A DNA stretch of 64,000 bases. It comes from Eledone cirrhosa. Taxonomy: Eukaryota. The notes beneath the pieces were generated by a model, which saw only the letters and a program-made list of their open reading frames with translations, did no database searches and had not been told where the DNA came from. A program made the position numbers and the translations under genes. Location of the stretch: positions 271,064,001 through 271,128,000 of the forward strand of contig OZ024741.1 of NCBI GenBank assembly GCA_964016885.1. The letters run 5' to 3'. Below, in pieces: positions 2,414 to 57,140 of the stretch. Position 1 is the stretch's first letter; each line of letters begins with the position of its first letter.

Positions 2414-2953
2414 CTTGTTGTTGCTGTTGTTGTATCATGGTGATGGTTTTGGTGGCGGCGGGCGGCGGTGGTAGTGGTGGTGGTGGTGGCGGCGGTGGTA
2501 GTGTTGCTGATGGTGGTTTTGGCGGCGGCGGTGGTAGTGGTGGTGGTGGTGGTGGTGGTGGTGGTGGTGGTGGTGGTGGTTATGTGGTGGTGATGGTGGT
2601 GGTAGTTATGATGGTCGTGATGGTATTGGTGATGGTGTTAGTCATGGTGATTGTGATGGTGGTGATTGGTGGTGGTAGTGGTGGGGGTGTTGGTGATGGT
2701 AATGGTAATGATGATGGTGATGGTGATGGTGTAAGTGATGGTGTAAGTGATGGTGGTGGTGATGGTGATGATGCTGTTGTTCGTAAGAGTGATGGTGCTG
2801 GTGATGATGATGTTGGTAATGGTGATGGTGATGGTGATAGTGATGATGATGGTAATGATGACGGTGATGATGATGATGGTGAGGGTGAGGGTGGTGATGG
2901 TAACAGTTGTGAGAACAGTGACAATGATAATGGTGCTGCTGGTGATGATGATG
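2414..2953. repeat. Degenerate trinucleotide repeat (GGT/GAT/GGC)n
   Basis: Runs of GGT, GAT and GGC. Confidence 0.9.
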
Positions 2954-3018
2954 GCTTTTCAACTGTGACCTGACATCAAAGGATGTTCGAACGAAACCTA
3001 GACGAAATAAAGATAACG

Positions 3019-3052
<34 letters not shown>

Positions 3053-3080
3053 GTATGTATATATATGTATATATATGTAG

Positions 3081-3141
<61 letters not shown>

Positions 3142-3175
3142 GTATATATATGTATATATATATATATAAATGTAT

Positions 3176-3517
<342 letters not shown>

Positions 3518-4075: not shown

Positions 4076-4560
4076 AGGTTTTTGATATTAAATCGTGTGT
4101 CGAAACAAATACTGTTATACTTGGGGAGGGTCATATTGTTGTAATATTTGGTGGATTGGCAGTATCGGTAGAGGGTCGGACGCCATGCTTTTGACATATA
4201 GAGTTACGGCCCTTGCCATTCTGAGTTCAAATCCCGCCGAGGTTAACTTTGCCTTTTATCCTTACGGGGTCGATAAAATAAAGTACCAGTAATGTACTGG
4301 GTAATTGCTGGCCTTGTGCCAAAAGTAGAAACAATATTGCCAGAAATAATAACAGAACACACTCACTGTTTGGTTGGTTTTCGCTCTTGTATCTTTTGTA
4401 TCTCCATAGTTAATTTATTTGGCAATCAATGTTTATCATTGATTGACCAGCGGTATATATTTTAGTCTAACAAAGTTCTTTCGTTGCACATCTGCAACAT
4501 CATCAATGGTACTATTATGTTCCCTCCTATTGTATTGTAATGTCTACGCCATTTTTATTG
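4074..4560 (-). mobile_element. PLE pLTR fragment, family F, interrupted by a SINE
   Basis: Matches 52853-53150 and 50001-50230; SINE inserted at about 4150-4336. Confidence 0.7.
4150..4336 (+). mobile_element. tRNA-derived SINE
   Basis: A-box-like TGGCAGTATCGGTAG, B-box GTTCAAATCCC, conserved GGGGTCGATAAAATAAAGTACCAG core; more than 10 copies in the window. Confidence 0.85.
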
Positions 4561-5725: not shown

Positions 5726-5778
<53 letters not shown>

Positions 5779-5819
5779 ATCTATCTATCTATCTGTCTGT
5801 CTGTCTATCTATCTATCTA

Positions 5820-6183
5820 AGTATTACTTTAGAAGGAGAATCAGGGGGGAGAGAGAGGCACTGCACCCCAGTAAATTTACTGAAAGGTGGGTGATTGAAG
5901 CAAAAATGGCCCGAGTGATTGTGCCTTCTCTGTTTATAAGCCTGTAGGTTGAGGAAGAGAGCAAAAGGAAGAAAGGAGCACTTGCACAACACGCTCCTGG
6001 AGTTGAGGGTTGTTTTATCGACGGGGTATTAAACAACCCATTTGTGGCGCCTCCCCCCTATTGGGGATTTCGATTGTTGTAATTGTTTGTTTTTATATTT
6101 TTTACACGACTGTATGTAAAATCCCCGGCATGTCTTTGTATTGTCCCCTTTTCTTGTTGCGCCCTTGTGGCTAATAAAGAAAT
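5820..6183 (+). mobile_element. 5'-truncated Tx1/L1 3' end in (CTAT)n
   Basis: Nearly identical to 45347-45710; (CTAT)n on both sides. Confidence 0.9.
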
Positions 6184-6251
6184 CTATCTATCTATCTATC
6201 TATCTATCTGTCTATCTATCTATCTATCCGTCTGTCTGTCTATCTATCTAT

Positions 6252-6432
6252 CCACGGGGGTGTAAAACAACCCTGCAGTAACGTTCCCCCTATTGGGGAT
6301 TTCAATTGTTATTTTATTATATATAGTTTATTGTTATTTATTAATGTTAAAGTTATATGATTTTTATGTAAAACCCCCGCCGTCACGTCTTGTAATGTCC
6401 CATTTTTGTACGCCCTTGTGGCAAATAAAGAA

Positions 6433-6434
<2 letters not shown>
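6252..6434 (+). mobile_element. Short Tx1/L1 3'-UTR fragment of another subfamily in (CTAT)n
   Basis: Ends GCCCTTGTGGCAAATAAAGAAAT(CTAT)n; overlaps in sequence with the 54470-54505 copy. Confidence 0.8.
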
Positions 6435-9174: not shown

Positions 9175-11299
9175 CTATCCGTTAGGGTATAACGTGGGGC
9201 TGTAATACAGGAAAGTGTTGTGCAATTTATGTTTACAAGCCGAAATTGCCTCAGATTTTTTGTTTAAGATGTGGTCTGTGGCGTAGAGTATTTCCAGGGC
9301 CTCAGCGGCGCAGAGGTCACATGGTCTTTTATTTCCGTTATACGATCTAGCCCTAGCTAGGATCTCCCAGTGTAACTTAAATTTGGGTGTGGTTGTCTTT
9401 TAGACTCCAGATATCAGCTGAAAGTGACGCCATATTCCTTCTTAGAGGGTAACGAAAAGAATGGGTATGCATGTAAAGACGCTGCTTGAATCTATTGGCG
9501 GTTAACCCTATGTAGGCCCTACGGGACGTGGGTGTTTCAACCTTACATTTGTAGACAATGTTACTAGAGAGGCATTTCCCGGATAGGGGGCAATCAACCC
9601 GATTCCTACAATTACAGTTAGTACTAACTACAGGGTTGCACGTGTTCCTACGGCTAGGTAGTTTAGCTAAATTTGAAGCTGTGATGTTATGTGCAAGGTT
9701 AGGAGTCGTAGAGTAAGAAATTTTAATAGTATTTCTATTAAAATGTTTACTATATTTATGTGTAGGGGGAAAATGCTTCGTAATAAGGGGAAGAAAGATC
9801 TTAGCTAATGGTGTGGCCACCTCAATATTATATGGTGGGTTATACCAACAAATGCGACGGGATCTATTTCTTCTAGGTCTATTTTCGTACTCTGTATATG
9901 CTACCTCATCGACAAATCCACTCCGAGCAAGAGCTTCATTGTAATAAGTGGAATGGTCGTTGAAAATATGCTCGTTAGTAGATAGACGGGAAAGCCTCAA
10001 TGAAACGTTTCTTACCAGGTTCTTGGTTATGCTGGCAGGATGGTTGGAATGCTTACTTATGTAATTAAGCGTATCATTCGGCTTTCTATACGGGTAATAC
10101 AACCCATCCGATAAATTGAGGGTAACGTCGAGGTAATTAACGACCGAGAGATTGGCCTCAACCTGTATAGAGAGGCCTTTAAAGAAGGCTGTGAGTTCTT
10201 TTCTGCACCTGTCGCAAGCACGAGATCCGCACTTAGTTATGGTAAAAAAACCATCATCACGGTACAAACCACCGCCCGCGTTGGGGAATTCGTCCTTGAT
10301 AGAGAAAAGAAGGAAAAGGCCGATAAGATCAGTAACCTCCGCAGAATCGCTGGCGCCCATACTCATGTCGAATGGGGTACTATTGGATTTTTTAATCCAA
10401 ATAGAGTCGTCGAAATTAATCACCGACTTTCGGGCATTGAGGATGACATCAACTTCGAAATCCTTAACCACTGTGAGTGTTTTAGCGAAATTGATAGCTC
10501 TAAGAAGAAGTGGTAAAGTGATGGAGGAGTAGTAATTGTTGATGTCGAATTGGATAAAACGGCAATGTTCCTTGTTGCATATGCCGTTGAACCAATCAAT
10601 CACCGCGAAATAATTGTTCCACAGTGCAAGAGGGGCCAAACCTCTAATTTCAGGTATAATTCTATCAAGAATCCTTTTACTAAGTCTACCTAAATCGGAC
10701 TTCGTAGGGTTAATAAGCCGAATAGAGGGGTTGTTCGGAAAATTGGATTTGTGATCCTTCAGGGAAAAGTGGGGAGAAATAGGGTCCAGAGGTTCGGTTC
10801 GGTCCAGGATGTTGAGATCAGATGTGATTTTAAACCCAGCATCGTTGATTTCATTGATGACGCATCGATTAGTTTTACGGTAATCCTTAGTTACAGCATT
10901 ATGTAGTAGTTGATGGTAAGTACTGCGTTCCACTTGATATAGGTTGCCAGTTTTGTCGGAATGGACGAGCACGGCATTAGAATCCTTAATAGAACGAATT
11001 CTATTCTTCAGGTCCTGCTGGAAGGAATTGCTCCTATTCCGAAATTTGATACTCCGCATGAGTTCCAAGACGTCATTTTCGAAGGGTAGCAATGCTGGGT
11101 TACACGGGGGGTTATTATAGGTTTTAAACCCAAATTCATCCTGTTTGTTGTCTGCTTTTCGCGGATTATCGAAATAGAAGGCACGCCAACGCAACCTTTT
11201 AATGAACGCGTCTGTTTTCTGTATCAGAAGTTTTAGGTATGTTTTCCTGCTTGGTACGGGTATGTTCTTTGTAGAAATATTCAGATGTTGTTTCTGCAT
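9175..11299 (-). pseudogene. PLE reverse transcriptase / GIY-YIG endonuclease ORF with one frameshift near 9385
   Basis: STKNIP..KRLRWRAF N-terminus; FIQFDI..YYSSI; MGASDSAEVTDL; GLYRDDG; NYLDVTL; CNCR..CPL..C; IVYKC..YIG. After the shift it reads WEILARARSY..CDLC..E..LNKKSE..CKH to a TAG at 9175-9177. Confidence 0.92.
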
Positions 11300-11541
11300 G
11301 ATGAATATAAGTCAATAGAGTGCTCAACCGAGGGAGCCAAATAGTAATAATAATAAATTTGAAGACTAAAATCCAAAGGGAGCTCGATAAGGATAAATAT
11401 ATATCAAATATATAAGAACCAAATGACGTATTATATTCGTTTTTTCCCGTTCTTTGCCAGGGAACGTCTCCACGAACCAAAGTATCGTCTTCCTGTCTTA
11501 TTCCGGTTGCAACGTTTTTTGAAATATCCACTTCTGCGTTT

Positions 11542-11617
11542 ACAGGTTGACTTTGTTAGTTTCAGAAGACCCCGTTAAGGGTGAAAGCAGCGATTCTTTG
11601 CTTAAACTTTAATCTGT
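11542..11617 (+). ncRNA. Type-I hammerhead motif, family B
   Basis: Distal stem I acaggttga/ttaatctgt; proximal stem I agttt/aaact; core CAGAAGA; stem II ccc/ggg; GAAA; stem III agca/tgct; CUU site. Confidence 0.7.
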
Positions 11618-11712
11618 TATTTTAATAAATATTTGGTCTACGGTTCTTATATATTTGATATATATTTATCCTTATCGAGCCCTCTTTGGATTTTAGTCTT
11701 CAAATTTTTGTT

Positions 11713-11845
11713 CAGAATTAGCCGTCGAAACGGCTTGAGCTCAGCCGTCGGGGTCCTACTCGTTCCTATTACCCACTCTACTACCGTAAGTATTGAGTAC
11801 TTTGGTGAGTAATGGTCCACCTGGTTCCTTACCACATTTCCTTCG

Positions 11846-11848
<3 letters not shown>
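11713..11848 (+). mobile_element. PLE pLTR fragment, family C, carrying the 3' half of a hammerhead
   Basis: GAAA-cggct..agccg-TC then ACTCTAC..GTATTGAGTAC; ends in (TA)n. Confidence 0.65.
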
Positions 11849-11892
<44 letters not shown>

Positions 11893-19690: not shown

Positions 19691-20403
19691 GGCAGTGTCT
19701 TTCATTAGAAATATGGTAATGAAAGGGTTAAACCACATAGGCAGTGTCTTTCATTAGAAATATGGCAATGAAAGGGTTAAACAACATAAGCAGTCTCTTT
19801 CATTAGAAATATGGCAATGAAAGGGTTAAACCACATAGACAGTGTCTTTCATTAGAAATATGGCAATGAAAGGGTTAAACCACATAGACAGTGTCTTTCA
19901 TTAGAAATATGGCAATGAAAGGGTTAAACAACATAGGCTGTGTCTTTCATTAGAAATATGGCAATGAAATGGTTACACCGCATAGACAGTGTCTTTTATT
20001 AGAAATATGGTAATGAAAGCGTTAAACGACATAGGCAGCGTCTTTCATTAGAAATATGGTAATGAAAGGGTTAAACCACATAGGCAGTGTCTTTCATTAG
20101 AAATATGGTAATGAAAGGGTTAAACCACATAGACAGTGTCTTTTATTAGAAATATGGCAACGAACGGGTTAAATAACATAGGCAGTGTCTTTCATTAGAA
20201 ATATGGTAATGAAAGTGTTAAAAAATATAAACAGTGTCTTTCATTAGAAATATGGCAATGAAAGGGTTAAACAACATAGGCAGTGTCTTTCATTAGAAAT
20301 ATGGTAATGAAAGGGTTAAACAACATAGACAGTGTCTTTCATTAGAAATATGGTAATGAAAGGGTTAAACAACATAGACAGTGTCTTTCATTAGAAATAT
20401 GGT
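19691..20403. repeat. 49-bp minisatellite, about 14.5 copies
   Basis: Unit GGCAGTGTCTTTCATTAGAAATATGGTAATGAAAGGGTTAAACCACATA. Confidence 0.95.
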
Positions 20404-20906
20404 ATGCGAAAGGCTAAAAAAATGTTTATTAACATGGCTATTTACATGTTGCCGATTCTATCGCTTACCTTGCAAAACACAAGGAACGGTGGCAAATATT
20501 TTAACTGTGGCCCCCGAGTTATCAAAGCACACCTGTACCTTTTCGTTTTACGATTTACACCAGACGAAGACAAAAATACCATTTTTGTTGTTGTTTTTGG
20601 TGCTGGAGGATGGAGGCTGATTATTTTTCAGTGAAACTCGTGAAAACAATATTTTTCTCATTTATTTTGCATCTCTTTCTGGACTCGGAGAGTGTGACTG
20701 AGGTAAGGCGACACACATTTCTAATATTGCTTTTGTTTGGGGAAGTTTTGACAGAGATTTTGTTTTTCTTTTCTTTGTTTTTCAGCAGTGGGGGTTGCCT
20801 GCTAGTTCTGGCTTGGAGGAATGCTTCAGACCATCCTGTGTTTTACCATCTAGACCTCCGACTACTCTTCCGTTGAAGGTGAAAGGCCACGTCTACAATA
20901 ATAATA

Positions 20907-22289: not shown

Positions 22290-22710
22290 ATACTCCTTAA
22301 TACTTCTTTTTATCTCCTCCTGCTCCTACCTTTTTATCTCCTCCTACTCCTACCCTTTTATCTCCTCCTACCTTTTTATATCCTCCTACTCCTACCTTTT
22401 TATCACGTCATACTCCTACCTTTTTATCTCCTCCTACTCCTACCCTTTTAACTCCTCCTACTCCTACCCTTTTATCTCCTCCTACTCCTACCCTTTTATC
22501 TCCTCCTACCTTTTTATATCCTCCTACTCCTACCTTTTTATCACGTCATACTCCTACCTTTTTATATCCTCCTACTCCTACATTTTTATCTCCTCCTACT
22601 CCTACCTTTTTATATCCTCCTACTCCTACATTTTTATCTCCTCCTATTCCTACCCTTTTATCTCCTCCTACTCCTACCTTTTTATCTCCCCCTACTTCAA
22701 CCTTTTTATA
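22290..22710. repeat. About 24-bp pyrimidine-rich minisatellite
   Basis: Repeats of CTCCTCCTACTCCTACCTTTTTAT with shorter 18-bp variants. Confidence 0.9.
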
Positions 22711-22859
22711 TTTTCACTTGTTTAGACTCTCTTTCTTCCTTTCTCTCCAGCTCTTCGTTCAATACATGGTTATATCTTAACCCGACCTTTTACTATACAT
22801 ATAGTATTCAGCTGTTTACAGCTACCCTTCGTGCTGATAATCCTACAATTTTATGAAAA

Positions 22860-25319: not shown

Positions 25320-26432
25320 TTAATTAATAGAGTTTTGACAGTTAATTATATAAAAAATTTCCTCCATACACAAATGACAGATTCTTGAGAAAGCCACATT
25401 TCGGTATGCAGGTGCTTTCGAAATCGTTCCCCAAGATATTGAATAGTCTATATTGTTGACCTTTAAATTCCAAATTAGATGTGAAAGTGAAGTGGAAGAT
25501 ATTTTATCGGACCTATTAAATGTATGTTTGTGGTTGTACCAGCGTTCTTTGAATTTTGTAGAAATGGCACCTTTATAGTTAAATATTTTGTCTCTAGTTT
25601 TTACTGTGCATTTATAAATTAAGTTTTTGTCTAGGCAATTGTTTTGTAAAGGGCAGTTTGATTCAATTCTACAGTTACATTTTCTGGAGTTGTTGTTACT
25701 AGGAACGGTACTATTATTATGAATATTGTTATTAGAAATATTATTATTGCTAGCTTGGTTTGTTTGGTTAGGGTTTAAATATAAGTTTCTATTATTAATT
25801 CTATTTATATTTTGTGCTATGTTCATAGTAGTAGAGTAAGATAGTTTTATAGTGTGTCTGTTAAAAATAGAGTGGTATCTGTGGGCTTTAGGAAAACACT
25901 TAACCAGTGCTTTGAAAAATAGTTTTGCTACAGGTGTTTTAACGCCTAATGAGAATGGGGGAGAGTACCAAATAATATTTCTAGTTCTAGTTTTTTTGTT
26001 TGGTTTACTATTTAAGTTGAATTGGTTATTGTAATTATAGTGAATTCTTGGATGATTTATCATGTTATTGTTGTCTAAGTATTTAATTTTATTCGAGTAT
26101 CATGCTCTATGTAAAGCCTCATTGTAATATTCTCCTTATCATCAAAAATATATTTATTAGCAGAGAAGCGTGAAATCCGTTGTTGGACGCTATTGACAAT
26201 AGTGTTTTTAATATTTCTAGGATGATTAGAATTGGAACTTACGTAATATAGATTTTCATTAATTTTATGGAATGGATAATAAAGACCTGAGCTAAGGTAT
26301 AATAAAATAAATATGGTTTTATAAATATAGTTTCCATTTATTAATATCATTGATATTATACTCCAGAAAATTGTCGACTGCTTCGAATCAGTTATAAATA
26401 TATATATTTGTTGAATTACCAACAAATTAAAT
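25320..26432 (-). mobile_element. 5'-truncated Naiad-type PLE (RT thumb, linker, GIY-YIG) with an inverted family G pLTR at the 5' junction
   Basis: YYPFHK.N..L.YV..SNHP; RNIIWYSPPFS; IKLSYS; CNCR..CPL..C; LIYKC; FKERW.NH; CHLC.EE. 26297-26432 matches 63250-63382. Confidence 0.88.
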
Positions 26433-31739: not shown

Positions 31740-31829
31740 CTCTCTCTCTCTCTTTATATATATATATGCGTAAGTATCTATATGCATCATCCATCCATAA
31801 ATCTATCTATCTATGAATCAATATGTATT

Positions 31830-31900
<71 letters not shown>

Positions 31901-31997
31901 GTCTGTCTATCTATCTATCAATTTATCTATCATCTATCTATCTATTTCTCTTCCCCCGCCCCCACTCTCTCTCTCTATATATAAATACCCCCTCCCC

Positions 31998-32665: not shown

Positions 32666-32741
<76 letters not shown>

Positions 32742-33069
32742 ATTTGCACAGTGACACTTCTAGACATATTTCAGACATCTTAGACCTCATTAACCAAGAA
32801 TAATCTTAGAATCTTAAATGACATCTATCTGAGAAAGATATCTATCTATCTATCTATCTATCTATCTTGATAGAGTAAGACACGCTTCGCATCGGCTCCG
32901 CTATTCCATCGGGATTTACCCTTACTATTGTAAGTACCGGATAAATTTTTTAGTGCAACACATTTGGAACACTAACCCCTGTTATTTAGGGAAACATTTT
33001 TGCATTTACCCCCTTTTTAGGGGGTAAAATAAATATCTATTTTTGCCGAAAAATTTCTTTCTTGGCAGC

Positions 33070-34904
33070 ATGGCGGAAAAGATGGCAGACATGTCTGCCA
33101 TTAGCTCTGCCACGCCCCCCAAGTCTGAAGAACAAAAAATAATTACAACAAAATTAGACATTGAAACAAACAAACAAAATGAAAAAACAAATGTTAAGGA
33201 AAATGAGCAAACAGAAAACAAACAAACAGAAAATAATACAAATAACGACAGGGCAACTTTCGCCCAGAAAACAAAACAATCCATTACATACACACCAATT
33301 GACCTAACTGCCGCCAGAGAAAAACTGGCCGAAGCAAAGAAACACATTGTTTTGGGGGAGAACGGAATGTTTTCCATTAACTCCCCCCCAGAATTCAAGA
33401 AAGCCAGAGCAGAAAACACAGTTCTCTACAGAACTATACTGAACCAGACAAGAAAGCCAGCACAGCCCAGCCAAATGGAAATAGAGTTAGTCCTAAAAGA
33501 CTATATGAAGAATATTCTCTTCATACGAAAGGACCGACTCTATGGCAGCATTTCGGTCCTAACAAGAGACAAAGAAACGGCGGAGAAGCTTTCCCTAAGC
33601 CCACTCTCGTCGACAACATATAGCTTCTATCCCTCCTACATGGGTAGAAGAACACAGAGAGTAAAAGTAAAAACAATGCTGCCCACAATGGACTTCTGGT
33701 GGGCTATTGCTGGCTTCATTGATATGGGCGAAGACACAATGCAGTCAATGGGGAAGGCAACTGGAGATGCGTTCCTGGGAATGGGCCTCGACATACTAGT
33801 CCAAATGAGGCCCGAAAGAATAGCACAAATCCCGGATCGCATCTGGCTGGATGACCTTACCCCAATAGACATAATTGTAGAGGGGAGAAGACCAGCATGC
33901 TATTTATGCATGGAAAGGGGACACGTTAAGGCTAACTGCCCGAAACGTATCCCCCAAAAAGGACTATTGCCCACACCCACCACAAACAGTACACCAACAC
34001 CACCCACCTCTAAAAATACACTAATACCACACACAGCAAACAAAATACAGACACCACCAACCACAAACACAACACAAACATCACCACCACCAGCACCAAA
34101 CACAAGCACGACACAAAAATCACCACCACCAACCACAACACAAACATCACCACCACCATCACCAACCACAAGCACGACACAAACATTACCACCACCACCA
34201 CAAAACCCATTCCAAACAAGTAATAAAAAAAACAGTAACAAATCTACCCCTCCCGCAAAAAAAAAACAACCACACAACACGTCCCTCCCACCTAGCGCTG
34301 AAGAGTTTCCCCCAACTTCTGAAGAAGAAGGAGGAGAAGCCTTCAGACAAGTTAAAAGAAAAAAAAGAAAACACACACCCAGCACACCACAAATAACCCA
34401 CACACAAACACCAACTCCAATCAAAAACACCCCACCCTCAACAAACAAAAATAAATCTGCGCCTCCCCTCTCCGAAACATTGACAGCATCACAAAAAAAG
34501 ACGTTGCAATACACATATATAAATAAAGAAAACAAAAAACTGGTTAAATTAATAAACAATAACCCTATGGTGCAGACCGAAGGGCCAAACTTTATCTCAA
34601 CAGAGAACTTCACCCATTTAAAAATGATAAAGGTCCCTCTGGACCTTTATCGTTCCTTAAAAGAACAATTTAGACGGGACGTGAGCCCCCCCCCTGTTTA
34701 AAACCGTTGAATCGCGTCCTCTTGAAAGATTTCCCCATAACCGCCCCTCTCCCTGACACAACTCCAAATACCCCAACCCCACCACACACGTGTACCCCCA
34801 CACCACCACAAAACATCCCTCCACCCAACACACCTGATGCCATGGAAATTACGCAACCCGGAGAGGTAAGTGCTTTTCTTTCTTCACTTTCAACACCAAA
34901 ATAG
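33070..34904 (+). CDS. Tx1 ORF1, gag-like zinc-knuckle protein; frameshift in the C run at about 34690
   Basis: CYLCMERGHVKANC; Pro/Thr-rich tail; KRKKRK. Copy 2 shows the frame continues PPC.KP.NRVLLK. Confidence 0.85.
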
Positions 34905-37900
34905 ATCAATTGAGAGTTGGCTGTTTGAACGCGCGTGGCCTGGGCTCAGCTTGGAAGCAAGCAAAGCTTCTAAGTGACCTCAGGTCACAAAGTATAGATG
35001 TGATGGTTGTTTGCGAGAGTCGGATCAGCAGCGTGAGACAGCTGGCGCCCGCCTTCGATGACTTTGAGATGCACGCATCTCTCTGTCAACCCGGAGGCGG
35101 GGGGGGGGGAGTTGCCGTACTGCTGGATAAACGTCTGACTCTCGACGTACAGATTGTTCACTCGGACCCGGGGGGTCGATTACTGGTGCTGGACGTCGGA
35201 GGCGGTGAAGGCGGGGCTTTCAGACTGGTCGGTCTTTATGCTCCCTTCGGGGCGGAAAGAGCCGACTTCTTCCAGCGTCTGGAGACTTTTCTAGGAACGT
35301 CGCGTTCCCTGCTTTTAGTGGGGGACTGGAATGGAATCCTAGATGCGCGTTGGGACTATGCAGGGGCATGTCTCGATAGAGGGGGGTGTAGCAGCCTCAA
35401 GGGGTTACTCGATCGATTCGACCTGGTCGATAGATTTCGACTAGATTGTCCAACTGCGCCAACCTGGACCTGGGCAAACCGCAGTGGACAATCTAGATCG
35501 TACCTAGATAGGTTTTTGGTTAGGAGTAAGGATAGGGACGTATTTAGTTGTCCAGAACTGATCATGGTTGGCTATTCAGATCACAAATTAGTGACCTGCG
35601 TGGTCAACCTTGATAGAACGCATAGACAGGGTCCCGGTTACTGGAAGATGAACTTGTCCTTACCGACAAAGAAAGATTACAGAAACCGGATTAGTAGCTT
35701 AGTTAAGATGCGGTTGACGGGAGCGATCGTCAACAGTAGGTGGTGGATATCTCTAAAGAGAGAGATTAGAGTAAGTTCGATAGGTTACAGTAAGGAACTA
35801 GCGGCGAATAGAAATAGGAGGGAAAGGGAGTTAACAGATAAACTAGAAGAGGCGATTAGGAGCGGAGACGTAGCCAGAGTGTTAGCGACGAGAACGGCAT
35901 TGAGCCAGTTCTTTGACGCGAAGCACGAAGGCTGCGTTATCCGAAGTAAAATACGTGCTTTAGGAAACGAGGGGACCAAAGCTGTTAGCTGGGCCCGCGT
36001 GACAGAAGCCAAGAGTGGGATTAAATCCACCATTCGGTCTTTGCGAGACCAGGATGGACGGGTGATCCTTGAACCTGAGCGAATGTGCGAGACCTTTCAA
36101 AGGCACTTTGCTCGACTGTTCGGAGGTGGCGGGGGGCCGGACGGGGATGTGGACTTCGGTCCATACCTCGACGGTCTACCGCGTCTTTCGAGCGGCGAAG
36201 CGGAGTGCTGCGAAAGGCCAATCACAGCCACTGAAATCGGGGAAGCGCTCAGCCAATGCAGCAGACGCAAATCCCCGGGTCTCGATGGTCTACCATACGA
36301 ACTTTATTTAGCTATGCCGGTCTTGTTCTCCGAACTCCTCGAGGCTGTCTATTGCAACTGGCAACAGAACGGGAGAATTCCCTGTTCTGTGACCAAGGGC
36401 GTGGTCACGCTAGTGAGGAAGGACGAGAGCAAGGGGGACGACTTAAGTAACTTTAGGCCCATAACTCTGCTGAATGCAGAGTTACAGATTTTGGCCAAGG
36501 TGTTGGCGAAGAGGTTGGCGCTTGTGGTGGGTGGTTTGGTGGGAGACGCGCAGACATGCGCTATCCCGTCCAGGTCCATTCACGACAACCTCCACCTCAT
36601 GCGATACATCATAGAGAGGGTTGGCTACGAACCCGGCTTTGGTGGGGCCCTGATCAACTTGGATCAATCTAAGGCGTTCGATAGGGTCGACCATGGTTAC
36701 CTGGATGCGGTGCTAGCGGCGGCGGGCTTCGGACCCGTTTTCAGGGGCTGGATTTCTGCCATGCACAGTGGCAACATCTACTCTAGGATTAAAGTAAACG
36801 GCTACCTCTCGGAGCCGTTTCAAATCACCCGATCCATCAGACAGGGGTGTCCCCTCTCCTCCCTTCTGTACGTATAGACTCTCGAGCCACTGCTGCGGAA
36901 GTTGGAGTTGCTGCGGGGCATACCCCTGGAACCGGGATTGCACAAAGCGGTCTCGGCCTATGCCGACGACGTAACAGTAATGGTGGCGGACACCTCGGAA
37001 ATCGGGGCGATCGCCACCCTACTGGAGGAATACGAAAGGCTGACGGGGGCTAAGCTGAACCAGGACAAGTCAGTCGCTTTGCAACTCGGAACGTGGAGGG
37101 GCAAACCGATGCCGTTAGACGGTGTCGTCGGGCGGTGGACGGAGGGCCCGGTGAAGCTGCTCGGGGTCTGGTTCGGACCGGACCTCCAGGTGGAGAAGAA
37201 TTGGGGCGAGGTGACGAGCAGGGTGTTTGCGCTGACCCAGAAGTGGGCCAAGTGCAAACTATCACTGAAAGGTCGGGCGGAGGTGACGAACGCTTACATA
37301 GCGTCCGTCATCTACTACCGCCTGACCGTCGTGCCTTGCCCCAAGGAAAAGCTCACCATCATGGAACGCATGCTCTTCCAGTTCCTCTGGAAGAAGCGGC
37401 CTCCCATGGTGAGGAGATCCATCTGCTGCCAGCACCCTTCGAAAGGAGGGCTGGGTATGCCGTGGCTGTTGATGCGTAGGCACGCATTGAGGCTACGGCA
37501 TCTACAGGTATTCCTCAACGGTCAGCCGGTGTGGGCCCCGTTTGTGAGGCGAGCCTTCCCGCAGCTCGTCTCGCTCACCGAACTGCAATCCTGGGTGAAG
37601 CAAAGACCGAGAAAACTGGGCAACTGGCACACTGAGTGTGCCCAGGCGCTCACGGCTATCTGGCAAGCGGACCCGACTGTCAGTGGAGAATCCACCTCGA
37701 CATTCTATAGAGGGTTGGTGGCTAGCAGGGGCGACGACACCCTTGGAGAGTCGCTAGGCATGGAGGAGGACGAACTGGCCAGCCTGTTCGGTAGAACTTT
37801 CGGCCCGGGACCCATGGACAACTTCCAGAGGTCCCTAGCCTGGCAGTGTTACCGGGGGGGCTCTGCCCGTTCGAGAAAAGCTCTACAGACACGGGCGCCC

Positions 37901-38342
37901 GGGCAGGGATCCCGCGAAAAAGATCTGTCCCAGATGCGTGCGCGACGAGGAAACCGTTGCGCATGCACTGGTACACTGCCCGGGCGTTGCCGATCTGTGG
38001 GGCTACGTCGAACGACTGCTGTCGCGTGTGGCGCCGATTCGATTAACCGCCGAGTCTGTGGTGAACATCAAGCCACCTCCTCCCTTCAGAAATGAAGCAG
38101 AGGCGGTCTTTCTGTGCGTAATAGCCATGATGAAAGAGGTTGTGTGGTGGACGCGCCTGAAAGGTCTGAGGTCGGGTGACTTTCTCTCCGGCCATCACCT
38201 GGTTTACTTCTTCCGATACCACTTCGGAAGAAGAATCAGGATGGAGAGAGAAGTGCTTGGTCCCAGACAGTTTTATGAAAGGTGGGTGAAAGAAGCGAGA
38301 ATGGCCCGTGTAAATGGGCCTTCTCTCTACATTGTTCTGTAG
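34901..38342 (+). pseudogene. Tx1 ORF2 (APE endonuclease, reverse transcriptase, C-terminal zinc finger)
   Basis: CLNARGL, GDWN, SYLDRF, SDH, PGLDG, FRPITLLN, DQSKAFD, RQGCPLS, AYADD, CPRC..ETVAHALVHC; premature TAG at 36875; frameshift in the G run at about 37855; ATA where copy 2 has ATG. Confidence 0.93.
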
Positions 38343-38598
38343 GTGAAGAAGTGAAGAGGAAAGGGGGAGCGCCTCCTCTCTGGGCTTCCCCCGCGAAAAG
38401 AGTTGCACACTTTTCGGGGGTATGTGCAATCCCCAACACGCCCCCTCCCTTTTGAGGACTTTTTATTGTTATATTATTATTGTTATTCCTTTTTTCTTTA
38501 CTCGATTTATGTAAACTCCCCCACTGTGTAAATGTCCCCTTCTTTTGTGCCCTCGTGGCAAATAAATAGAAATTTATCTATCTATCTATCTATCTATC

Positions 38599-41500
38599 GT
38601 TGATAGTGGACGTCTTTCACATCGGCTCTTCGATTTTGGATCACTACTTTGTTATTTGTGAGTGTGTTATTTGAATTTTGTTATTATTGTTTACTCTAAC
38701 CCCTCGTTTGGGACTGTAGACGTAGGGTAAATATATTTTCGCCCCTTTTGGGGTGAAAATCTTTAATTTAAAATGTTTATTGATATCGTTAAAAACGAGG
38801 AAGCCATATTGCAAGCTAACGCCACGCCCACAAAAAAAAGCGAGAAAGAGGGAACAACAATTGAAACTGTTGAACTACCCTCCTCTCGAATGGAAAAAAC
38901 ACTGTTAATTTGAGTGAAAACCCAAATTTTGAAAAAGATAAAAGGGAAAAAAATACCACAAAAAATGGGATTAATAAAACCAACAACATTGCAACAACAA
39001 ACAACAATAAACGAAGGAAAACAACAAAGATAGCAACATTTCTTTTGCCCAAACGGTAAAAAAAACGATCGAATACAAATCCATAGACATTACTAACGCT
39101 AAAGAAAACTTACTAAATGCCAGAAAATACGTATCTTTTGGGGAGGATGGTTCTTTTACGATCAACTCCCCAGAAGAAGTTCGTCAACAGGCATATAGGA
39201 ATACTATAACTTTCAGGACTATATCCAACGCAACAAGAAAACCAGCTCAATTGACAGAAAGTCAAATTGAGCTGGTTCTGAAAGACATTAAAAAAGACAT
39301 ACTCTTTATGCCAGCATTATGGTCCGAATGAAGGACCAAATGCTGGCTCGAAAATGCTCGGTGGCACCTATAGTGTCACCACAATACACCTTCTTCCCCA
39401 CATATAAAGGAAGAAGAACACAAAGACTAAGAATGTGGAGCTCAACGCCAGAAGTAGACATCTGGTCCGTCCTGACAGGATTCGCGGACCTAGAAAAGAA
39501 CATTCTAGTATCAGCAGGTGAGTCCACAAGTGGACTATTCGGGGGGAAAAGTCTGGAGGTTCTCATACAGATGAGTCCAGAGAGAATCGCCGGAATACCC
39601 GACCGAGTACTACTGGATGGTCGAACCTTTATTAATATTACGGTGGAAGGCAGGAGGCCCTCATGTTACCACTGAGCTGGCAGAGGTCACCTGAGGACTG
39701 CCTGCCCTCTACTAACAACAAAAAAACCACAGCTTCAAACACCACAACAACAACAAAAACAACCAGCACCACCACCACAAAAACAACAAAATACACCACC
39801 ATCACCACCACCACCACAGCGACAACAAAAACCAACAACACCACCTCCAGCACCACCACCACAACAACAACAAAAACTTAGAGCACGAAACAAATCACAG
39901 TCACACCCACCTACCCCACACAGAAAACAATCAAAAATACACACACCAACACAACACTACCACAAAATATCCCTCTACCCCGGAACACGGACGAAAACCT
40001 CCTTACATCGGAGCATAGCGAAGATGAAGGAGAGCCGTTCCGACCAGTAAAAAGGAAAAAAAGGAAACATACCACTAACAGAAACCAAACAAACACAGAA
40101 GAAACCAACACAACACAAAGCACCTCTCCCCATTACACAACACTAACAGCGTCACAGAAAAAAACATTACAGTACACTTACATCAACAAACAAAACAAAA
40201 AACTGCTCAATATAATAAACAGCAACCCTTCAGTTTGCACCGAAGGGCCAAATTTTAAGACAGTGGATGACTCTCCACACCTCAAAATGATAAAAGTCCC
40301 CATGAACCTTTATCAAACTTTAAAAAACGTTTATAAAGAGGACGTGGGGCCCCCCTGTAACAAACCGTTTAACCGCGTCCTCTTAAAAGGTTACCCACCC
40401 CCTCCACAGACACCCACACAACTCCAAATACCCCAACCCCACCACACACTAATAACCCCCCACCCCCACCAACCCCTCCACCACCCCCATGGAAACTGAA
40501 CAGCCCGGACCCCGGGACGCAGAGAGGTAAGTGCCTCTTTCTTTACCACCAACATGGCTATGTTAAGAGTAGGTTGTCTAAATGCGCGTGGCTTGGGCTC
40601 ACCTTGGAAGCAAGCTAAACTTCTAAATGACCTCAGGTCACGAGGTATAAATGTGATGGTTATTTGCGAGGCCCGGATCAGCAGCGTGCAACAACTAGCC
40701 CCCACCTTTGATGACTTTGAGATGCACGCATCTCTCTGTCAGCCCGGAGGTGGGGGTGGGGTTGTCGTTCTGCTGCAAAAACATCTGGGCCTCGCTACAC
40801 AGACGGTACACTTGGACCCGGAGGGTCGACTAGTGGTTCTGGACCTTGGCAGTGGTGAAGGCGAAGCTTTTAGGCTGGTCGCCGTTTACGCTCCCTTTGG
40901 GGCAATGCGGTCGGACTTCTTCCATCGTCTGGAGACTTTTCTAGGGACGTCCCGCTCCTTGCTTTTAGTGGGGGACTGGAATGGTATGCACGTTGGGACT
41001 ATGTAGGGGCATGTCCCGATAGAGGGGGGTGTAACAACCTCAAGGAGTTAATCGGCCGATTTGACCTGGCCGATAGATATCGATTAGATTTTCCGACTGT
41101 GCCAACCTGGACTTGGACAAACCATATCGGTCAATCAAGATCGTACCTAGATAGGTTCTTAGTTAGAATTAAGGATATGGACTTTTTAAGTTGTCCAGAA
41201 ATGCTCATGGTGGGCTATTCAGACCACAAGTTAGTGACCTGCGTAGTCCACCTTGATAGAACGCATAGGCAGGGACCCGGTTACTGGAAGCTCAACTTGT
41301 CCTTACCGGAAAGTAGAGCTTACAGGGACCGGATTAGAACCTTAGTTAAGGAGCGGTTGACGGGCGCCATCGTCAACAGCAGGTAGTGGGGCTCTCTGAA
41401 AAGAGAGATTAGAGTAGTTTCAATAGGAGTTAGTAAGGAGTTAGCCTCAGATAGAAATAGGAAGGAAAGGGAGTTGGTAGTTAATGTTGAAGAGGCAACG

Positions 41501-44191
41501 TGGCCAGTGTGCAAGCGTCGAGAACGGCCTTGAGCCAGTTCTTCTACGCGAAACACGAAGGCTGCGTTGTCCGAAGCAAAATACGTGCTCTGGGAAACGA
41601 GGGGACCAAAGCTGTTAGCTGGGCCCGCGTGAGAGAAGCCAAAAGTGGGATTAGTTTGCAAGACCAGGATGGACGGGTGATCATTGAACCTAAGCAAATG
41701 TGCGAGGCCTTTCAAAGACACTTTGCCCGATTGTTCGGGAGGGGCGGGGGCCGGTTGGAGATGCGGATTTCGGTCCATACCTCGACGGCCTGCCCCGTCT
41801 TTCAGAAAAGGAGGCGAGGTCCTGTGACGGGCCGATCTCAGCTGCTGAAATAGGGGACGTGCTGAGCCTATCCGGCAAACGCAAATCTCCAGGGCTCGAT
41901 GGTCTGCCCTACGAACTATATATTAATATGCCGGACTTGTTCCCCGATCTCCTCGAGGCGGTCTACTGCAACTGGCAACAGAACGGGAGAATTTCCTGTT
42001 CTGTGACCAAGGGCGTAGTCCCACTAGTGAGGAAGGACGAGAACAAGGGGGATGACATTAGTAATTTTAGGCCCATAACTCTGCTAAATGCAGAGTTAAA
42101 GATTTTGGCCAAGGTGTCAGCGAAGAGGTTGGCGCTTGTCGTGGGGGGGGGGGGCTTGGGGGGAGATGCGCAGGCATGCGCTATCCCGTCCAGGTCCATC
42201 CACGACAACCTCCACCTCATGCGATGCATCATAGAGAGGGTTGGGAACGAACCCGGCTTTGGTGGGCCCCTGATAAATTTAGATCAGTCTAAAGCTTTCG
42301 ATAGGGTGGACCATGGTTACTTGGATGCGGTGCTAGCGGCGGCTGGTTTCGGACCCGTTTTCAGGGGCTGGATCACTGCCATGCATAGCAGCCGCATCTG
42401 CTCTAGAGTCAAGGTGAACGGCTACCTCTCGGAGCCGTTCGAAATCACCTGCTCCATCCGACAGGGGTGCCCTCTCTCCTCCCTTCTGTATGTATTGGCT
42501 CTCGAGCCACTACTGCGGAAGTTGGAGTTGTTGCAGGGCATCCCTTTGGAACCGGGATTGCGCAAAGCGGTGTCGGCCTACGCCGATGACGTAACAGTAA
42601 CGGTGTCCACCACCGCGGAAATCGAGGCAATCGGCACCTTACTGGAGGAGTACGAAAGGTTGACAGAGGCTAAGCTGAACCGAGACAAGTCAGTCGCTTT
42701 GCAACTCGGCGAGTGGAGGGGCAAACCGATGTCGTCCGACGGTATCGTCGGACGGTGGACGGAGGGCCCGGTGAAGTTGCTTGGGGTCTGGTTCGGACCG
42801 GACCTCCAGGTGGAGAAGAAATGGGGTGAGGTGACGAATAGGGTGCTTGCACTGACCCAGAAGTGGGCCGAGTGCAAACTATCCCTGAAAGGTCGGGCGG
42901 AGGTGGCGAACGCTTACATAGCGTCCGTCATCTATTACCGCTTGACTGTCGTGCCTTGCTCGGGTGAGATCCTCGCCAAAATGGAGCGCGCTCTCTTTCA
43001 CTTCCTTTGGTCTGCCCTGGTGAGGAGATCCATCTGCTGTCAACACCCTTTGAAAGGAGGGCTGGGGATGCCGTGGCTAAAAATGCGTAAACACGCATTG
43101 AGGCTACGGCACCTCCAGGTATTCCTCACCGGTCAACCGGTGTGGGCCCCGTTTGTGAGGCGAGCCTTCCCGAGGCTCGTCTCGCTCACCGAGCTGCAGT
43201 CCTGGGTGAAGCAAAGACCGAGAAAACTGGGCGACTGGCACACCGAGTGTGCCCAGGCGCTCACGGCTCTCTGGCAGGCGGACCCGGCTATCGGTGGAGA
43301 CTCCACCTCGTCATTCTATAGAGGGCTGGTGGTTAGCAGGTGCGACGACGCCCTCGGAGAAACCCTAGGCATGGAGGAGGACGAACTGGCCAGCCTATTC
43401 GGTAGGACTTTCGGCCCGGGACCTATGGACAACTTCCAGAAGTCCTTGGCCTGGCAGTGCTACCGAGGGGCTCTGCCCGTTCGGGATAAGCTCTACAGAC
43501 ACGGGCTCCCGGGTAGGGACCCCTCGAAAAAGATTTGTCCCAGATGCGTGCGCGACGAGGAAACCGTTGCGCATGCATTGGTACACTACTCGGGCGTTAC
43601 CGATCTGTGGGGCTATGTCGAACAACTGCTGTCACGGGTGGGACCAATTAGGTTGACCACCGAGTCCATTATAACGATCAAGCCGCCCCCCCCCCTTCAA
43701 AAATGAAGGAGAGGCGGTCTTCCTCTGTGTAATAGCGATGGTAAAAGAGGTTGTATGGTGGACGCGTCTAAAAGGGCTGAGGTCGGACACCTTTCTTTCC
43801 CGCCAACAACTGGTCCTTTTCTTCCGATACCATTTCGGAAGAAGGATCAGGATGGAGAGAGAGGTGCCCACCCCAGACAGTTTTATGAAAGGTGGGTGAA
43901 AGTTGCGAGAATGGCCCGTGTGAATGGGCCTTCTCTCTATATCAGCCTGTAGGTGGAAAAGGATGAAGGAAGAAGGGAGCACCCTCTCTTTGTGCTCCCG
44001 TAGAGAAGTGTCGCACATTTTTTTTTTCGGGGGTGTGTGTGACCCCAAAACGATCCCTCCCTATTGAGGACCTTTTTGTTTTAATTTTATTTGTTATTAC
44101 ATTTTTTTTACTCGATTTATATGTAAACCCCCCCCCCCCCCCATGTATATGTCCCTCTCTTTTGTGCCCTCGTGGCAAATAAATAGAAATT
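38599..44191 (+). mobile_element. Full-length L1/Tx1 retrotransposon, copy 2 (diverged subfamily, several frameshifts)
   Basis: ORF1 remnants at about 38770-40530 (FPTYKGRRTQR, VEGRRPSCY); ORF2 40554-43952; (CTAT)n at both ends. Confidence 0.92.
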
Positions 44192-44199
44192 TATCTATC

Positions 44200-45710
44200 G
44201 GTCTGTCGGTTTGCAACTCGGTACGTGGAGAGGCAAACCGATGACATCCGACAGCATCGTTGGACGCTGGACGGACGGACCGGTGAAATTGCTCGGGGTC
44301 TGGTTCGGTCCAGACCTCCAGGTGGAGAAAAACTGGAACGAGGTCACGGCCAAGGTGTTTGTACTCACTCAGAAGTGAGCAGAGTGCAAACTGTCCTTGA
44401 AAGGTCGAGCGGAGGTGGCGAACACTTTCATAGCGTCCGTCATCTACTACCGCTTGACTGTCGTGCCTTGTCCCCGTGAACACCTCGCCAAGATAGAACG
44501 CATGCTCTTCCAGTTTCTGTGGAAGAAGCAGGCTCCGTTGGTGAGGAGATCCGTCTGCTGTCAGCACCCTTCCGACGGAGGGCTGGGAATGCCGTGGTTG
44601 ATGATGCGCAAACATGCGCTGAGGCTGCGGCATCTCCAGGTATTCCTCACCGACCCCCAACCGGTGTGGGCACCGTTTGTGAGACAGGCTTTCCCACAGC
44701 TCGTCTCGCTGACGGAGCTGCAGTCCTGGGTGAAGAAAAGACCGAAAACGATGGGCGCCTGGCACATTGAATGCGCTCAGGCGCTCACAGTCCTCTGGCA
44801 AGCGGGCGCAGCAATCAGTGGAGACTCCACTTCGACATTCTATAGAGGGATTGTACGTTACAAGGGCGACGACGTGCTCGGAGAGACTCTGGGCGTCGAA
44901 GACGATGAGCTCACCAGTCTGTTGGTAGAACTTTCCGCCCGGGACCTATGGACAACTTCCAGAGGTCCCTGGCCTGGCAGTGCTACCGAGGAGCTCTACC
45001 GGTTCGTGACAAGATCTACAGGCACGGACGCCCTGGCAGGGATCCTTCCAAGAGGACGTGTCCAAGATGTGCGCAGGACATTGAAACAGTTCTGCACGCA
45101 ATTGTACACTGCCCGGGCGTAAGCGACCTGTGGAACTATGCAGAACAACTGCTGTCGCGTATGGGACAAATCCAGTTGACTGCCGAGTCCATAGTAAGGA
45201 TCAAACCGCCAGACTCTTTCAAAAACGAAAGAGAGGCGGTTTTCCTCTGTACGGTGGCTATGGTGAAAGAAGTTATATGGTGGACGAGGTTGAGAGGATT
45301 GAGGACAGATGCCTTTCTCTCCGGACAACAATTGATTCCCTTCTTTAAGTATCACTTTAGAAGGAGAATCAGGGGGGAGAGAGAGGCACTGCACCCCAGT
45401 AAATTTACTGAAAGGTGGGTGAATGAAGCGAAAATGGCCCGAGTGATTGGGCCTTCTCTGTTTATAAGCCTGTAGGTTGAGGAAGAGAGCAAAAGGAAGA
45501 AAGTAGCACTTGCACAACACGCTCCTCGAGTTGAGGGTTGTTTTATCGACGGGGTATTAAACAACCCATTTGTGGCGCCTCCCCCCTATTGGGGATTTCG
45601 ATTGTTGAAATTGTTTGTTTTTATATTTTTTACACGACTGTATGTAAAATCCCCGGCATGTCTTTGTATTGTCCCCTTTCTTGTTGCGCCCTTGTGGCTA
45701 ATAAAGAAAT
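44200..45710 (+). mobile_element. 5'-truncated L1/Tx1 retrotransposon, copy 3 (third subfamily)
   Basis: Begins inside the RT C-terminus (LQLGTWRGKPM) right after TATCTATC; ends AATAAAGAAAT-CTATCTATC. Confidence 0.92.
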
Positions 45711-46192
45711 CTATCTATCCGTCTGTCGGGCTGTCTGCATGTCTCACAACCAAACCGCCACCACCACCACCACCACCACCAACATCACCACCACCACCAC
45801 CACAACCGCCGCCTCCACGACTACGACCACCACCACAACCGTCGCCGCCGCCGCCACCACCGCCACCACCACCAAAAACCGACGCCACCACCACTACGAC
45901 CACCACCAACCCCGCCGCCACGACTACGACCACCACCACAACCGTCGCCGCCGCAGCCACCACCACCACCACCACCACCACCACCATGCTAACGGATAAT
46001 TAATCAGTTTTAATTGCCGATGTATTTTTGGGGTTTAACTGATAAACCTTGAATGTCAAAAATGACGGAAGGGTCAGAGGTTAGCATGAAGGTGGAGAGG
46101 GAGAGAGGGAGAGAGAAGAAGGGGGAGAGAAGGAGAGAGAGAGAGAGGGGGAGGAAGGAAGAGAGGGTGACATATATAGACAGACGCAGTGA

Positions 46193-54469: not shown

Positions 54470-54870
54470 GGGGAACGTTACTGCGAGGTTGTTTTACACC
54501 CCGTAGATAGAACAACCAGGAGGACGTTTTATAAGTGTTCCTGTCTTCACTCGTTTGTCTTCTTCAACCTACAGAGAAGGCCCATTCACTCGGGCCATTT
54601 TCGCCCAATCACCCACCTTTCAGCGAATTTATTGGGGTGCAGCACCTCTCTCTCTACTCTCACCTTCCTTCTGAAGTGGTATTTAAAGAAGGGGATGAGT
54701 TGTTGTCCAGAGCGAAACGTGTTTGCCCTCAGTCATTTCAGTCTCGTCCACTATATCACTTCTTTCGCTATAGCCACCAGACAAAGGAAAACTGCCTCTC
54801 CTTCGGTGTTAAATAAAGGCGGCGGGGTAATCCTCACGGTGGACTCGGCTGACAACTGGATTCGTCCCAC
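54470..54870 (-). mobile_element. Tx1 ORF2 C-terminus and partial 3' UTR
   Basis: VGRIQLSAESTVRITPPP..EAVFLCLVA; its 5' junction abuts (GATA)n. Confidence 0.85.
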
Positions 54871-56060: not shown

Positions 56061-57140
56061 TATTTCTTTATTTGCCACAAGGGCGCACAAGAAAAGGGGA
56101 CAATACAAAGACACATGCCGGGGATTTTACATACAGTCGTGTAAAAAGGTTTTAACATGAAAGATAGATATATTTCTTTATTTGACACAAGGACGCACAA
56201 GAAAAGGGGACAGTACAAAGACATGCCGGGGATTTTACATACAGTCGTGTAAAAATATTGAAACAATTATAACAATCGAAATCCCCAATAGGGGGGAGGC
56301 GCCACAAATGGGTTGTTTAATACCCCGTCGATAGAACAACCCTCAACTTCAGGAGCGTGTTGTGCAAGTGCTCCTTTCTTCCTTTTGCTCTCTTCTTTAA
56401 CCTACAGGCTTATAAACAGAGAAAGCTCAATCACTCGGGCCATTTTTGCTACATTCACCCACCTTTCAGTAAATTTACTGGGGTGCAGTGCCTCTCTCTC
56501 CACTCTGATTCTCCTTCTAAAGTGATACTTAAAGAAGGGAATAAATTGTTGTCCGGAGAGAAAGGCATCTGTCCTCAGTCCTCTCAATCTCGTCCACCAT
56601 ATAACCTCTTTCACCATAGCCACTGTACAGAGGAAAACCGCCTCTCTTTCGTTTTTGAAAGAGGTTGGCGGTTTGATCCTTACTATGGACTCAGCAGTCA
56701 ACTGGATTTGTCCCATATGCGACAGAAGTTGTTCTGTATAGTTCCACAGGCGGTTTCAATGTGCAAGGCGTGCAAGGCGGTTTCAATGTCCTGCTCGCAT
56801 CTTGGACACGTCCTCTTGGAAGGATCCCTGCCGAAGCGTCCGTGCCTGTAGATCTTATCTCGAACGGGGAGAGCTCCTCGGTAGCACTGCCACGCCAGGG
56901 ACCTCTGGAAGTTGTCCATAGGTCCCGGGCGGAAAGTCCTACCAAACAGACTGGCGAGCTCGTCGTCTTCGACGCCCAGAGTCTCCCCGAGCACGTCGTC
57001 GCACTTGTAAAGTACTAATCCTCTATAGAATGTCGAAGTGGAGTCTCCACTGATTGCCGTGCCCGCTTGACAGAGGACTGTGAGCGCCTGAGCGCAACAA
57101 TGTGCCCATCTTCTTTGGTCTTCGCTTGACCCAGGACTGG
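56061..57140 (-). mobile_element. 5'-truncated Tx1 (copy-3 subfamily) with a repeated 3' tip
   Basis: MDNFQRSLAWQCYRG..CPRC..WWTRLRG; the last ~90 nt occur twice (56061-56150 and 56171-56255), each followed by CTAT units. Confidence 0.9.

Follow-up and report, generated by a model that had tools for sequence, protein, structure and literature searches.

A Tx1-like retrotransposon family arrayed head to tail at its probable (CTAT)n target in Eledone cirrhosa, and an array-building sister family

Some retrotransposons of the L1/Tx1 group that lack long terminal repeats (non-LTR), and that encode an apurinic/apyrimidinic endonuclease (APE) together with a reverse transcriptase (RT), insert into simple repeats: Kibi targets (TC)n, Koshi targets (TTC)n, and crocodilian Tx1 families target (TTCC)n/(TTTC)n (PMC4494074), a source that also describes tandem SINEU-3 insertions around a target-site duplication (TSD). 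Here we describe a family of comparable kind in a 64,000-nucleotide stretch of the Eledone cirrhosa genome (contig OZ024741.1, positions 271,064,001 to 271,128,000; hereafter the window), animal DNA with abundant simple repeats in which three related APE-RT non-LTR elements, E1, E2 and E3, lie head to tail in one orientation (32867-45710, + strand). Very probably, (CTAT)n is the preferred target of this family, which resembles Kibi, Koshi and the crocodilian families as an L1/Tx1-group APE-RT element inserted in a simple repeat (PMC4494074) but differs from Kibi and Koshi in that (CTAT)n is not a pure pyrimidine tract. Microsatellite-targeting Tx1-like elements and arrays built by double insertion are already known; what is new is the CTAT target repeat, whereby (CTAT/GATA)n joins the target repeats of Tx1-like elements, and a sister family on contigs of the assembly CAXXMW01. 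The word "GATA" is absent from the text of PMC4494074 (figure labels and supplements lie outside this), and no (GATA)n-targeted non-LTR family was found in the literature searched, a scope that excludes Repbase and most subscription papers. Octopus vulgaris has 13 recently active L1-Tx1 families (PMC13282606).

Three further systems provide points of comparison. Tandem arrays of R1 and dimers of other transposable elements consist, like the arrays described here, of head-to-tail copies split by TSDs, with distinct 5' truncations and expansion by unequal exchange (10.1101/158386); R1, however, has one fixed target in ribosomal DNA, whereas the sister arrays combine eight spacers with one near-identical enzyme and the window family uses a microsatellite. 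Target-matching sequence at the RNA 3' end aids accurate initiation in SART1Bm and R1Bm, R1-clade elements whose endonuclease is itself target-specific and is refined by annealing (PMC7265360), whereas in the window and sister clade annealing is a proposed, heritable source of specificity. Finally, Tx1L of Xenopus is likewise a Tx1-type APE element with a specific target, but that target is a DNA transposon, and its isolated endonuclease, with an 11-residue loop, is sequence-specific in vitro (PMC1950540).

In addition to E1, E2 and E3, five copies (A, B, C, D1 and D2) lie elsewhere in the window, for a total of eight, and all junction statistics rest on these eight copies at four loci in one window. 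The features, including the open reading frames (ORFs) of E1, are as follows:

32839-32866, + strand: (TATC)7 target tract 5' of E1, with non-element DNA before it
32867-38574, + strand: E1, full length and least decayed, starting with TTGATAG and ending in hairpin, AATAAA and TAGAAATT
33070-34701, + strand: ORF1 of E1, open, with one CCHC knuckle and a Thr/Pro-rich C-terminal half, 27% identical to the sister ORF1 over 246 aa
34904-38342, + strand: ORF2 of E1, with APE (~34904-35650), RT and zf-RVT, a stop at 36875-36877 and a frameshift near 37855
38575-38598, + strand: (TATC)6 spacer between E1 and E2
38599-44191, + strand: E2, full length, both ORFs with several stops and frameshifts
44192-44199, + strand: spacer between E2 and E3, TATCTATC, which runs on as GGTCTGTCGG and belongs to the E3 TSD
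44192-44209, + strand: left copy of the E3 TSD, its final 9 nt doubling as microhomology to ORF2
~44201-45710, + strand: E3, of a third subfamily, 5'-truncated within the RT
45688-45710, + strand: 3'-terminal hairpin GCC-CT(T/C)GT-GGC plus AATAAA, as present in E3
45711-45719, + strand: CTATCTATC, 3' of E3
45712-45729, + strand: right copy of the E3 TSD, 17/18 identical to the left copy
5773-5820, + strand: CTAT/CTGT tract 5' of copy A, whose final 23 nt before 5817 reappear before copy B
5818-6183, + strand: copy A, 5'-truncated, 97% identical to E3
6248-6434, + strand: copy B, 3' untranslated region (UTR) alone, of a different subfamily from A
54470-54869, - strand: copy C, with its 3' end lost and a 5' truncation that follows a CTAT tract
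56062-56147, - strand: copy D2, the final 86 nt of an element alone
56172-57139, - strand: copy D1, 90% identical to E3, 3' end at CTAT

The association with CTAT is real and goes beyond chance. All seven intact 3' ends terminate in AATAAA(G/TAG)AAAT without poly(A), and at least two CTAT units lie within 3 nt of every one of them, compared with an expectation of 0.45% for random junctions; this is how an initial annotation of the window had described the ends, although its positions 56061 and 56171 are off by 1 nt. At the 5' side, at least two CTAT units lie within 10 nt of six of the eight junctions (background 0.7%), so the same annotation was right that truncated copies tend to follow CTAT, although it omitted D1 and D2, which do not. 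Restricting the count to the four 5' junctions with no copy upstream (E1, A, C and D1), three pass this test (P ~1e-6 at 0.7% background), as do two of the three truncated ones (P ~1.5e-4). Within the window the proposed comparison with the more abundant (TA)n also favored CTAT: outside the elements (TA)n occupies 4610 bases and (AGAT)n 589, roughly an eightfold difference, and (TA)4 adjoins 10.5% of random junctions, yet none of the 16 junctions listed. As a control, none of 34 matches to four unrelated repeat families had a CTAT/ATAG dimer in the 30 nt next to either end. These control repeats (4150-4335, 11555-11707, 3303-3474 and 11713-11850) are abundant, short and dispersed, and several end in (TA)n/TATTA-type runs. 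Target preference in Tx1 families has been assigned where more than 20% of flanks carry one repeat type (PMC4494074), and here 7/7 3' flanks and 6/8 5' flanks in the one window do so; the flanks are (CTAT)n and not the (TC)n or (TTC)n of Kibi and Koshi, a TC-rich 5' flank being seen in D1 alone. The longest perfect CTAT tract (17 units, 31830-31897, within 31801-31945) has no element and lies 1 kb from E1.

Because TSDs with non-periodic bases are present at E3 and A, the two of eight copies where a TSD is recognizable in this way, CTAT can be read as a target and not as a tail alone. An 18-bp duplication (44192-44209 and 45712-45729, 17/18) lies on either side of E3 and ends in the 9-mer GTCTGTCGG, found in the 64-kb window solely at 44201 and 45721; these last nine bases also agree with ORF2 where the truncation falls, and a relative of 70% identity shares the residues there. 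At copy A, a 23-bp sequence with CTGT interruptions that precedes A is repeated before B. Copy A is truncated at a TAA microhomology, and copy B at an internal TCTATC that is present in copy C. A fixed 3' end, variable 5' truncation and TSDs, the signs of target-primed reverse transcription (TPRT), are all present, and the TSDs and microhomology joins are what target-primed insertion leaves when microhomology aids 5' joining. The TSDs therefore bear out the earlier proposals that CTAT is a target and that insertions regenerate it, and do so better than the four junctions first listed as evidence, of which 6252 and 44200 come straight after the 3' end of another copy and thus have no power to tell a target from a tail. 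The two roles probably do not exclude each other. Directly 3' of AAAT, the base depends on the lineage (T in E1/E2, A in D1/D2, C in E3/A/B), and the template therefore extends at least into the first repeat unit. The TSDs do not fix the order of insertion inside the array. D2 may be a short insertion or a local duplication of the D1 end; the 14-nt filler between D1 and D2 (56148-56161) is unique in the window, and the 5' junction of D1 itself has a filler of similar length.

The neighbors within the array belong to different lineages. E2 shares 86% nucleotide identity with E1 in ORF2 and 60% in ORF1, and E3 shares 97% identity with A and 90% with D1, compared with 76% overall with its neighbors E1 and E2. 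The ratio of nonsynonymous to synonymous divergence (dN/dS) is 0.26 for E1/E2 (961 codons), 0.19 for E1/E3 and 0.18 for E2/E3; for E3/A it is 0.85 (42 codons). Since ratios of 0.18-0.26 separate the neighbors, and since E3 is nearer to the distant A and D1, the array was assembled from separate active lineages by independent insertions, confirming the initial reading of three elements of different subfamilies in tandem, split by CTAT. The array is not a decayed duplication of one element.

ORF2 identifies the family as an APE-RT non-LTR element of the L1/Tx1 group, as proposed from the start, with an N-terminal APE, an RT nearest to L1 and a C-terminal zinc motif (Exo_endo_phos E=2e-12, RVT_1 E=1.5e-23, zf-RVT E=1e-5 in Pfam). 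A profile of the family matches L1 ORF2p at E=5e-113 and R2 at E=5e-39. The APE of E1, which had been thought to need repair, is already uninterrupted, and its catalytic positions N, E, Y, D-x-N, D and H align with the L1 endonuclease. ORF1 of Tx1-clade elements carries RRM-type and CCHC modules, unlike the coiled-coil type of L1. In E1 the ORF1 zf-CCHC match is weak (Pfam E=0.017, under the curated cut-off), and Atlas look-alikes (zf-CCHC, RRM and ZCCHC3 RBD at 0.90-0.93) offer a lead only.

Trees were built from picked rows out of ~356 proteins, a quick one with 84 of 87 rows (three being too short) and a careful one with 29 rows, both without vertebrate L1 rows. By RT, E1, E2 and P0034 form one clade; proteins at 40-46% identity make up its sister group (100/100, careful tree). 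The quick tree separates the window clade and named fish Tx1 proteins from the remainder (SH-aLRT 96); in the careful tree a 24-row group (96/94) includes both and excludes plant L1-type rows, without support for the two as sisters, and the window clade sits on a long stem. A Tx1-like placement is thus likely. Close kinship to Kibi and Koshi, which had also been suggested, is not supported: the careful tree, where no row is labeled Kibi or Koshi, keeps the clade separate from named fish Tx1 proteins, and Q76IM5_TETNG, presumably of the Kibi/Koshi deposit series, falls in the fish clade away from the window family. Relative to one fish Tx1-type ORF2 the window family has ~32% identity, and it differs from named fish Tx1 proteins in its separate clade, long stem and shorter APE loop.

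A scan of genome contigs for relatives gave 52 loci, 40 of which, at 38-44% match, lie on 15 contigs of one metagenome-assembled genome (MAG) titled Arenicella sp. We analyzed loci L001-L039 and L041 as the sister family, leaving the distant L040 and L042-L052 (25-40%) outside the junction counts but reading the end of L040; the sister genome is known from array contigs alone. On these contigs, two-ORF elements of 6.4-6.8 kb, mostly intact, are arrayed head to tail with AT-microsatellite flanks, and the contigs are therefore animal DNA mis-binned into a bacterial MAG. At least 15 contigs (~567 kb by listed lengths) of animal retrotransposon arrays, host contamination, thus stand in a GTDB bacterial MAG. 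The arrays are satellite-like, with up to ten or more copies of a long interspersed nuclear element (LINE). Like the window family, the sister family has TSD-spaced arrays, a homologous ORF1, an ORF2 at 42-44% identity and a similar hairpin before AATAAA without poly(A); it differs in being mostly intact, in its long arrays, in an extra terminal hairpin and in junctions that lack CTAT, with no CTAT dimer at any of 46 junctions on the 15 contigs.

What separates the sister elements is a reused TSD of 16-19 bp, because the same spacer stands before first elements and before truncated starts. All 46 junctions begin directly after AATAAA, and the spacer is private to each array (eight unrelated spacers, mean pairwise identity 0.24), while the APE domains of nine arrays are 90-100% identical despite these unrelated spacers. 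Where host flank is visible, at L022 and L029, the spacer stands ahead of the first element in both cases; it also precedes two distinct 5'-truncated starts (element positions 3309 and 953), and in L022 it recurs with native continuation inside a duplicated host unit. This unit, of ~450 bp, is duplicated just 5' of the L022 array (2420-3210), with the element in the second copy. A small nuclear RNA or spliced-leader target in the spacer was considered and is not supported. Array building is clade-wide, and since the sister clade reuses unrelated spacers with a near-identical APE, target regeneration and array building are independent of the microsatellite. The pair constitutes a natural experiment on the origin of target specificity, setting arbitrary 16-19 bp sites with a near-constant APE against a microsatellite, through which the question of endonuclease versus RNA becomes directly testable, and the arrays show a route from LINEs to satellite-like arrays.

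A single model, the one we prefer, might cover both families, and we hold it with evenly divided confidence: TPRT combined with site selection by pairing between a read-through RNA and the target. The APE would nick the (ATAG)n strand; the RNA would continue past AATAAA into the flanking TSD, its 3' end thus carrying CUAU repeats; and this end would pair with the nicked strand and select the nicks to be extended. The second strand would be cut ~16-25 nt downstream, and repair would duplicate the site, leaving two usable targets after every insertion. For the sister clade, the carried TSD would be unique DNA whose sole match is its own array, giving long single-locus arrays; for the window family it would be microsatellite, and copies would spread over many tracts and also stack. 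The APE probably adds a nicking preference, and RNA-target pairing would be one indispensable part of the specificity. Window insertions always have CTAT on the element sense strand, and in SART1Bm and R1Bm priming is more accurate when the RNA end matches the target (PMC7265360). A stronger version, in which target specificity is inherited through the RNA and not the protein, a read-through transcript with the TSD of its own locus priming only where that sequence recurs, we consider unlikely. If true, one enzyme would yield either locus-private satellite-like arrays, from a unique TSD, or a genome-wide "GATA-specific" family, from a founder in (CTAT)n, and the target would be reprogrammable through 16-20 nt at the RNA 3' end.

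Several observations count against CTAT targeting or against its selection by RNA pairing. The 5' junction of D1 (57139) has a TC-rich flank with no CTAT dimer and one unit ~15 nt off, and that of D2 (56147) has the 14-nt filler in place of CTAT. TSD lengths are uneven in the window, E2 having at most 9 bp and C, D1 and D2 none that is readable. The hairpin loop of the APE has 9 residues in E1, E2 and P0113, compared with 11-12 in most sister and fish proteins (P0047 also has 9), and such a difference is what a change of APE-based specificity would predict; the endonuclease of Tx1L alone, moreover, nicks its own target specifically in vitro (PMC1950540). The read-through RNA is a putative step, proposed from genomic sequence. 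In the sister family, two neighbors on contig 17 with 76% identity in the ORF1 region have one common spacer, a pattern explained no less well by recognition of a resident 3' end. Finally, unequal crossover, visible as an identical truncated unit present twice on contig 8 and an alternating dimer on contig 14, accounts for much of the sister array length.

The same data can be set against three other explanations. That the APE domain itself recognizes (GATA)n, as proposed for Kibi and Koshi and in the initial annotation, with TSDs regenerating the target and double insertion building the arrays, is possible but on the doubtful side. This explanation fits the window junctions and TSDs as well as the family-specific 9-residue loop, which ends SRSYLDR in E1, E2 and P0113; the endonuclease is said mainly to set target choice (PMC4494074), and tandems have been explained by double insertion at preferred sites (10.1101/158386). 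But the loop tip is not the same in E1 and E2, the empty 17-unit tract 1 kb from E1 speaks weakly against it, being a single tract, and the sister clade, with near-identical APEs on eight unrelated spacers, is left unexplained. The APE as reader of (GATA)n is accordingly not demonstrated, and the sister family calls an endonuclease-only explanation into question.

Less probable still is that the elements aim at a resident copy's 3' end, with CTAT an element-made tail and the microsatellite incidental. The direct succession of AATAAA and junction in all 46 sister cases agrees with such self-insertion, as do the start of the E3 TSD at the E2 end, where two TATC units are left, and divergent sister neighbors with common spacers, on contig 17 especially; most sister neighbors are 95-100% identical, but identity is 88% on contig 16 and, on contig 14, 65-67% for the 5' part. 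Yet A, C and E1 sit in CTAT although no element precedes them, B lies 69 nt from the end of A, and the clustering of eight copies in four loci shows no significant excess over CTAT availability (P 0.19-0.33, tract weights hand-set). That one element was duplicated in tandem and then decayed neutrally, with CTAT present by chance in a microsatellite-rich genome, is close to untenable: although the window is full of simple repeats, unequal crossover operates on the sister arrays and D2 is possibly a local duplication, this explanation is already contradicted by the identity, junction and dN/dS data, with ratios between neighbors far below 1, E3 closer to A (97%) and D1 (90%) than to E1/E2 (76%), and TSDs present against a CTAT background of 0.45-0.7%.

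Regarding terminal structures, the hairpin GCC-CT(T/C)GT-GGC occurs in that form at six of the seven intact window ends, D1 having one substitution. Sister element ends have two hairpins and AATAAA without poly(A); the first has the same 5-nt loop as the window terminal hairpin with its middle pair flipped, and the second is extra. Two-sided changes were seen in 1/18 pairs in the window (6 ends), and in the sister family (9 ends) 97.6% of cells pair, a value equaled by 112/500 shuffles, leaving 3'-end hairpin structures plausible but unproven. A splice-donor-like site, AG|GTAAGT, stands just 5' of ORF2 in E1 (~34864), E2 (~40525) and the sister locus L006 (~5981), with comparable donors in 5' UTRs (E1 near 32929) and 3' of the sister ORF2 stop; such sites could serve splicing of the ORF2 message or suppression of AATAAA. 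The sole 5'-terminal feature shared by E1 (32867-32905) and E2 (38600-38635) is a short motif starting TTGATAG, which is the target CTATC in inverted-complement form and at the same time a WGATAR box. A fold-back between target and 5' end through this motif was rejected, as 13 sister junctions showed no folding advantage over controls (mean z -0.53 to -0.65 vs. -0.18, sd 1.24; E1 -0.78, E2 -0.42). Folds of the 5' UTRs were unremarkable (z -0.13 to 0.82), and Rfam gave no gathering-level match for a 5' ribozyme or known RNA in 32700-46000, where 12 weak matches are attributable to chance, and none in nine related loci.

Elsewhere, the 64-kb window holds no tRNA gene. Two Penelope-like open frames, with an RT followed by a GIY-YIG-type end, were noted by eye on the - strand (9377-11311 and 25320-26099), for which Pfam gave no matching family. 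The window also contains a (CCAC/CCAA)n array of 2.2 kb whose strand skew is extreme (1-2225) and two minisatellites, of 49 bp (14.6 copies, 19691-20404) and 24 bp (17 copies, 22306-22711).

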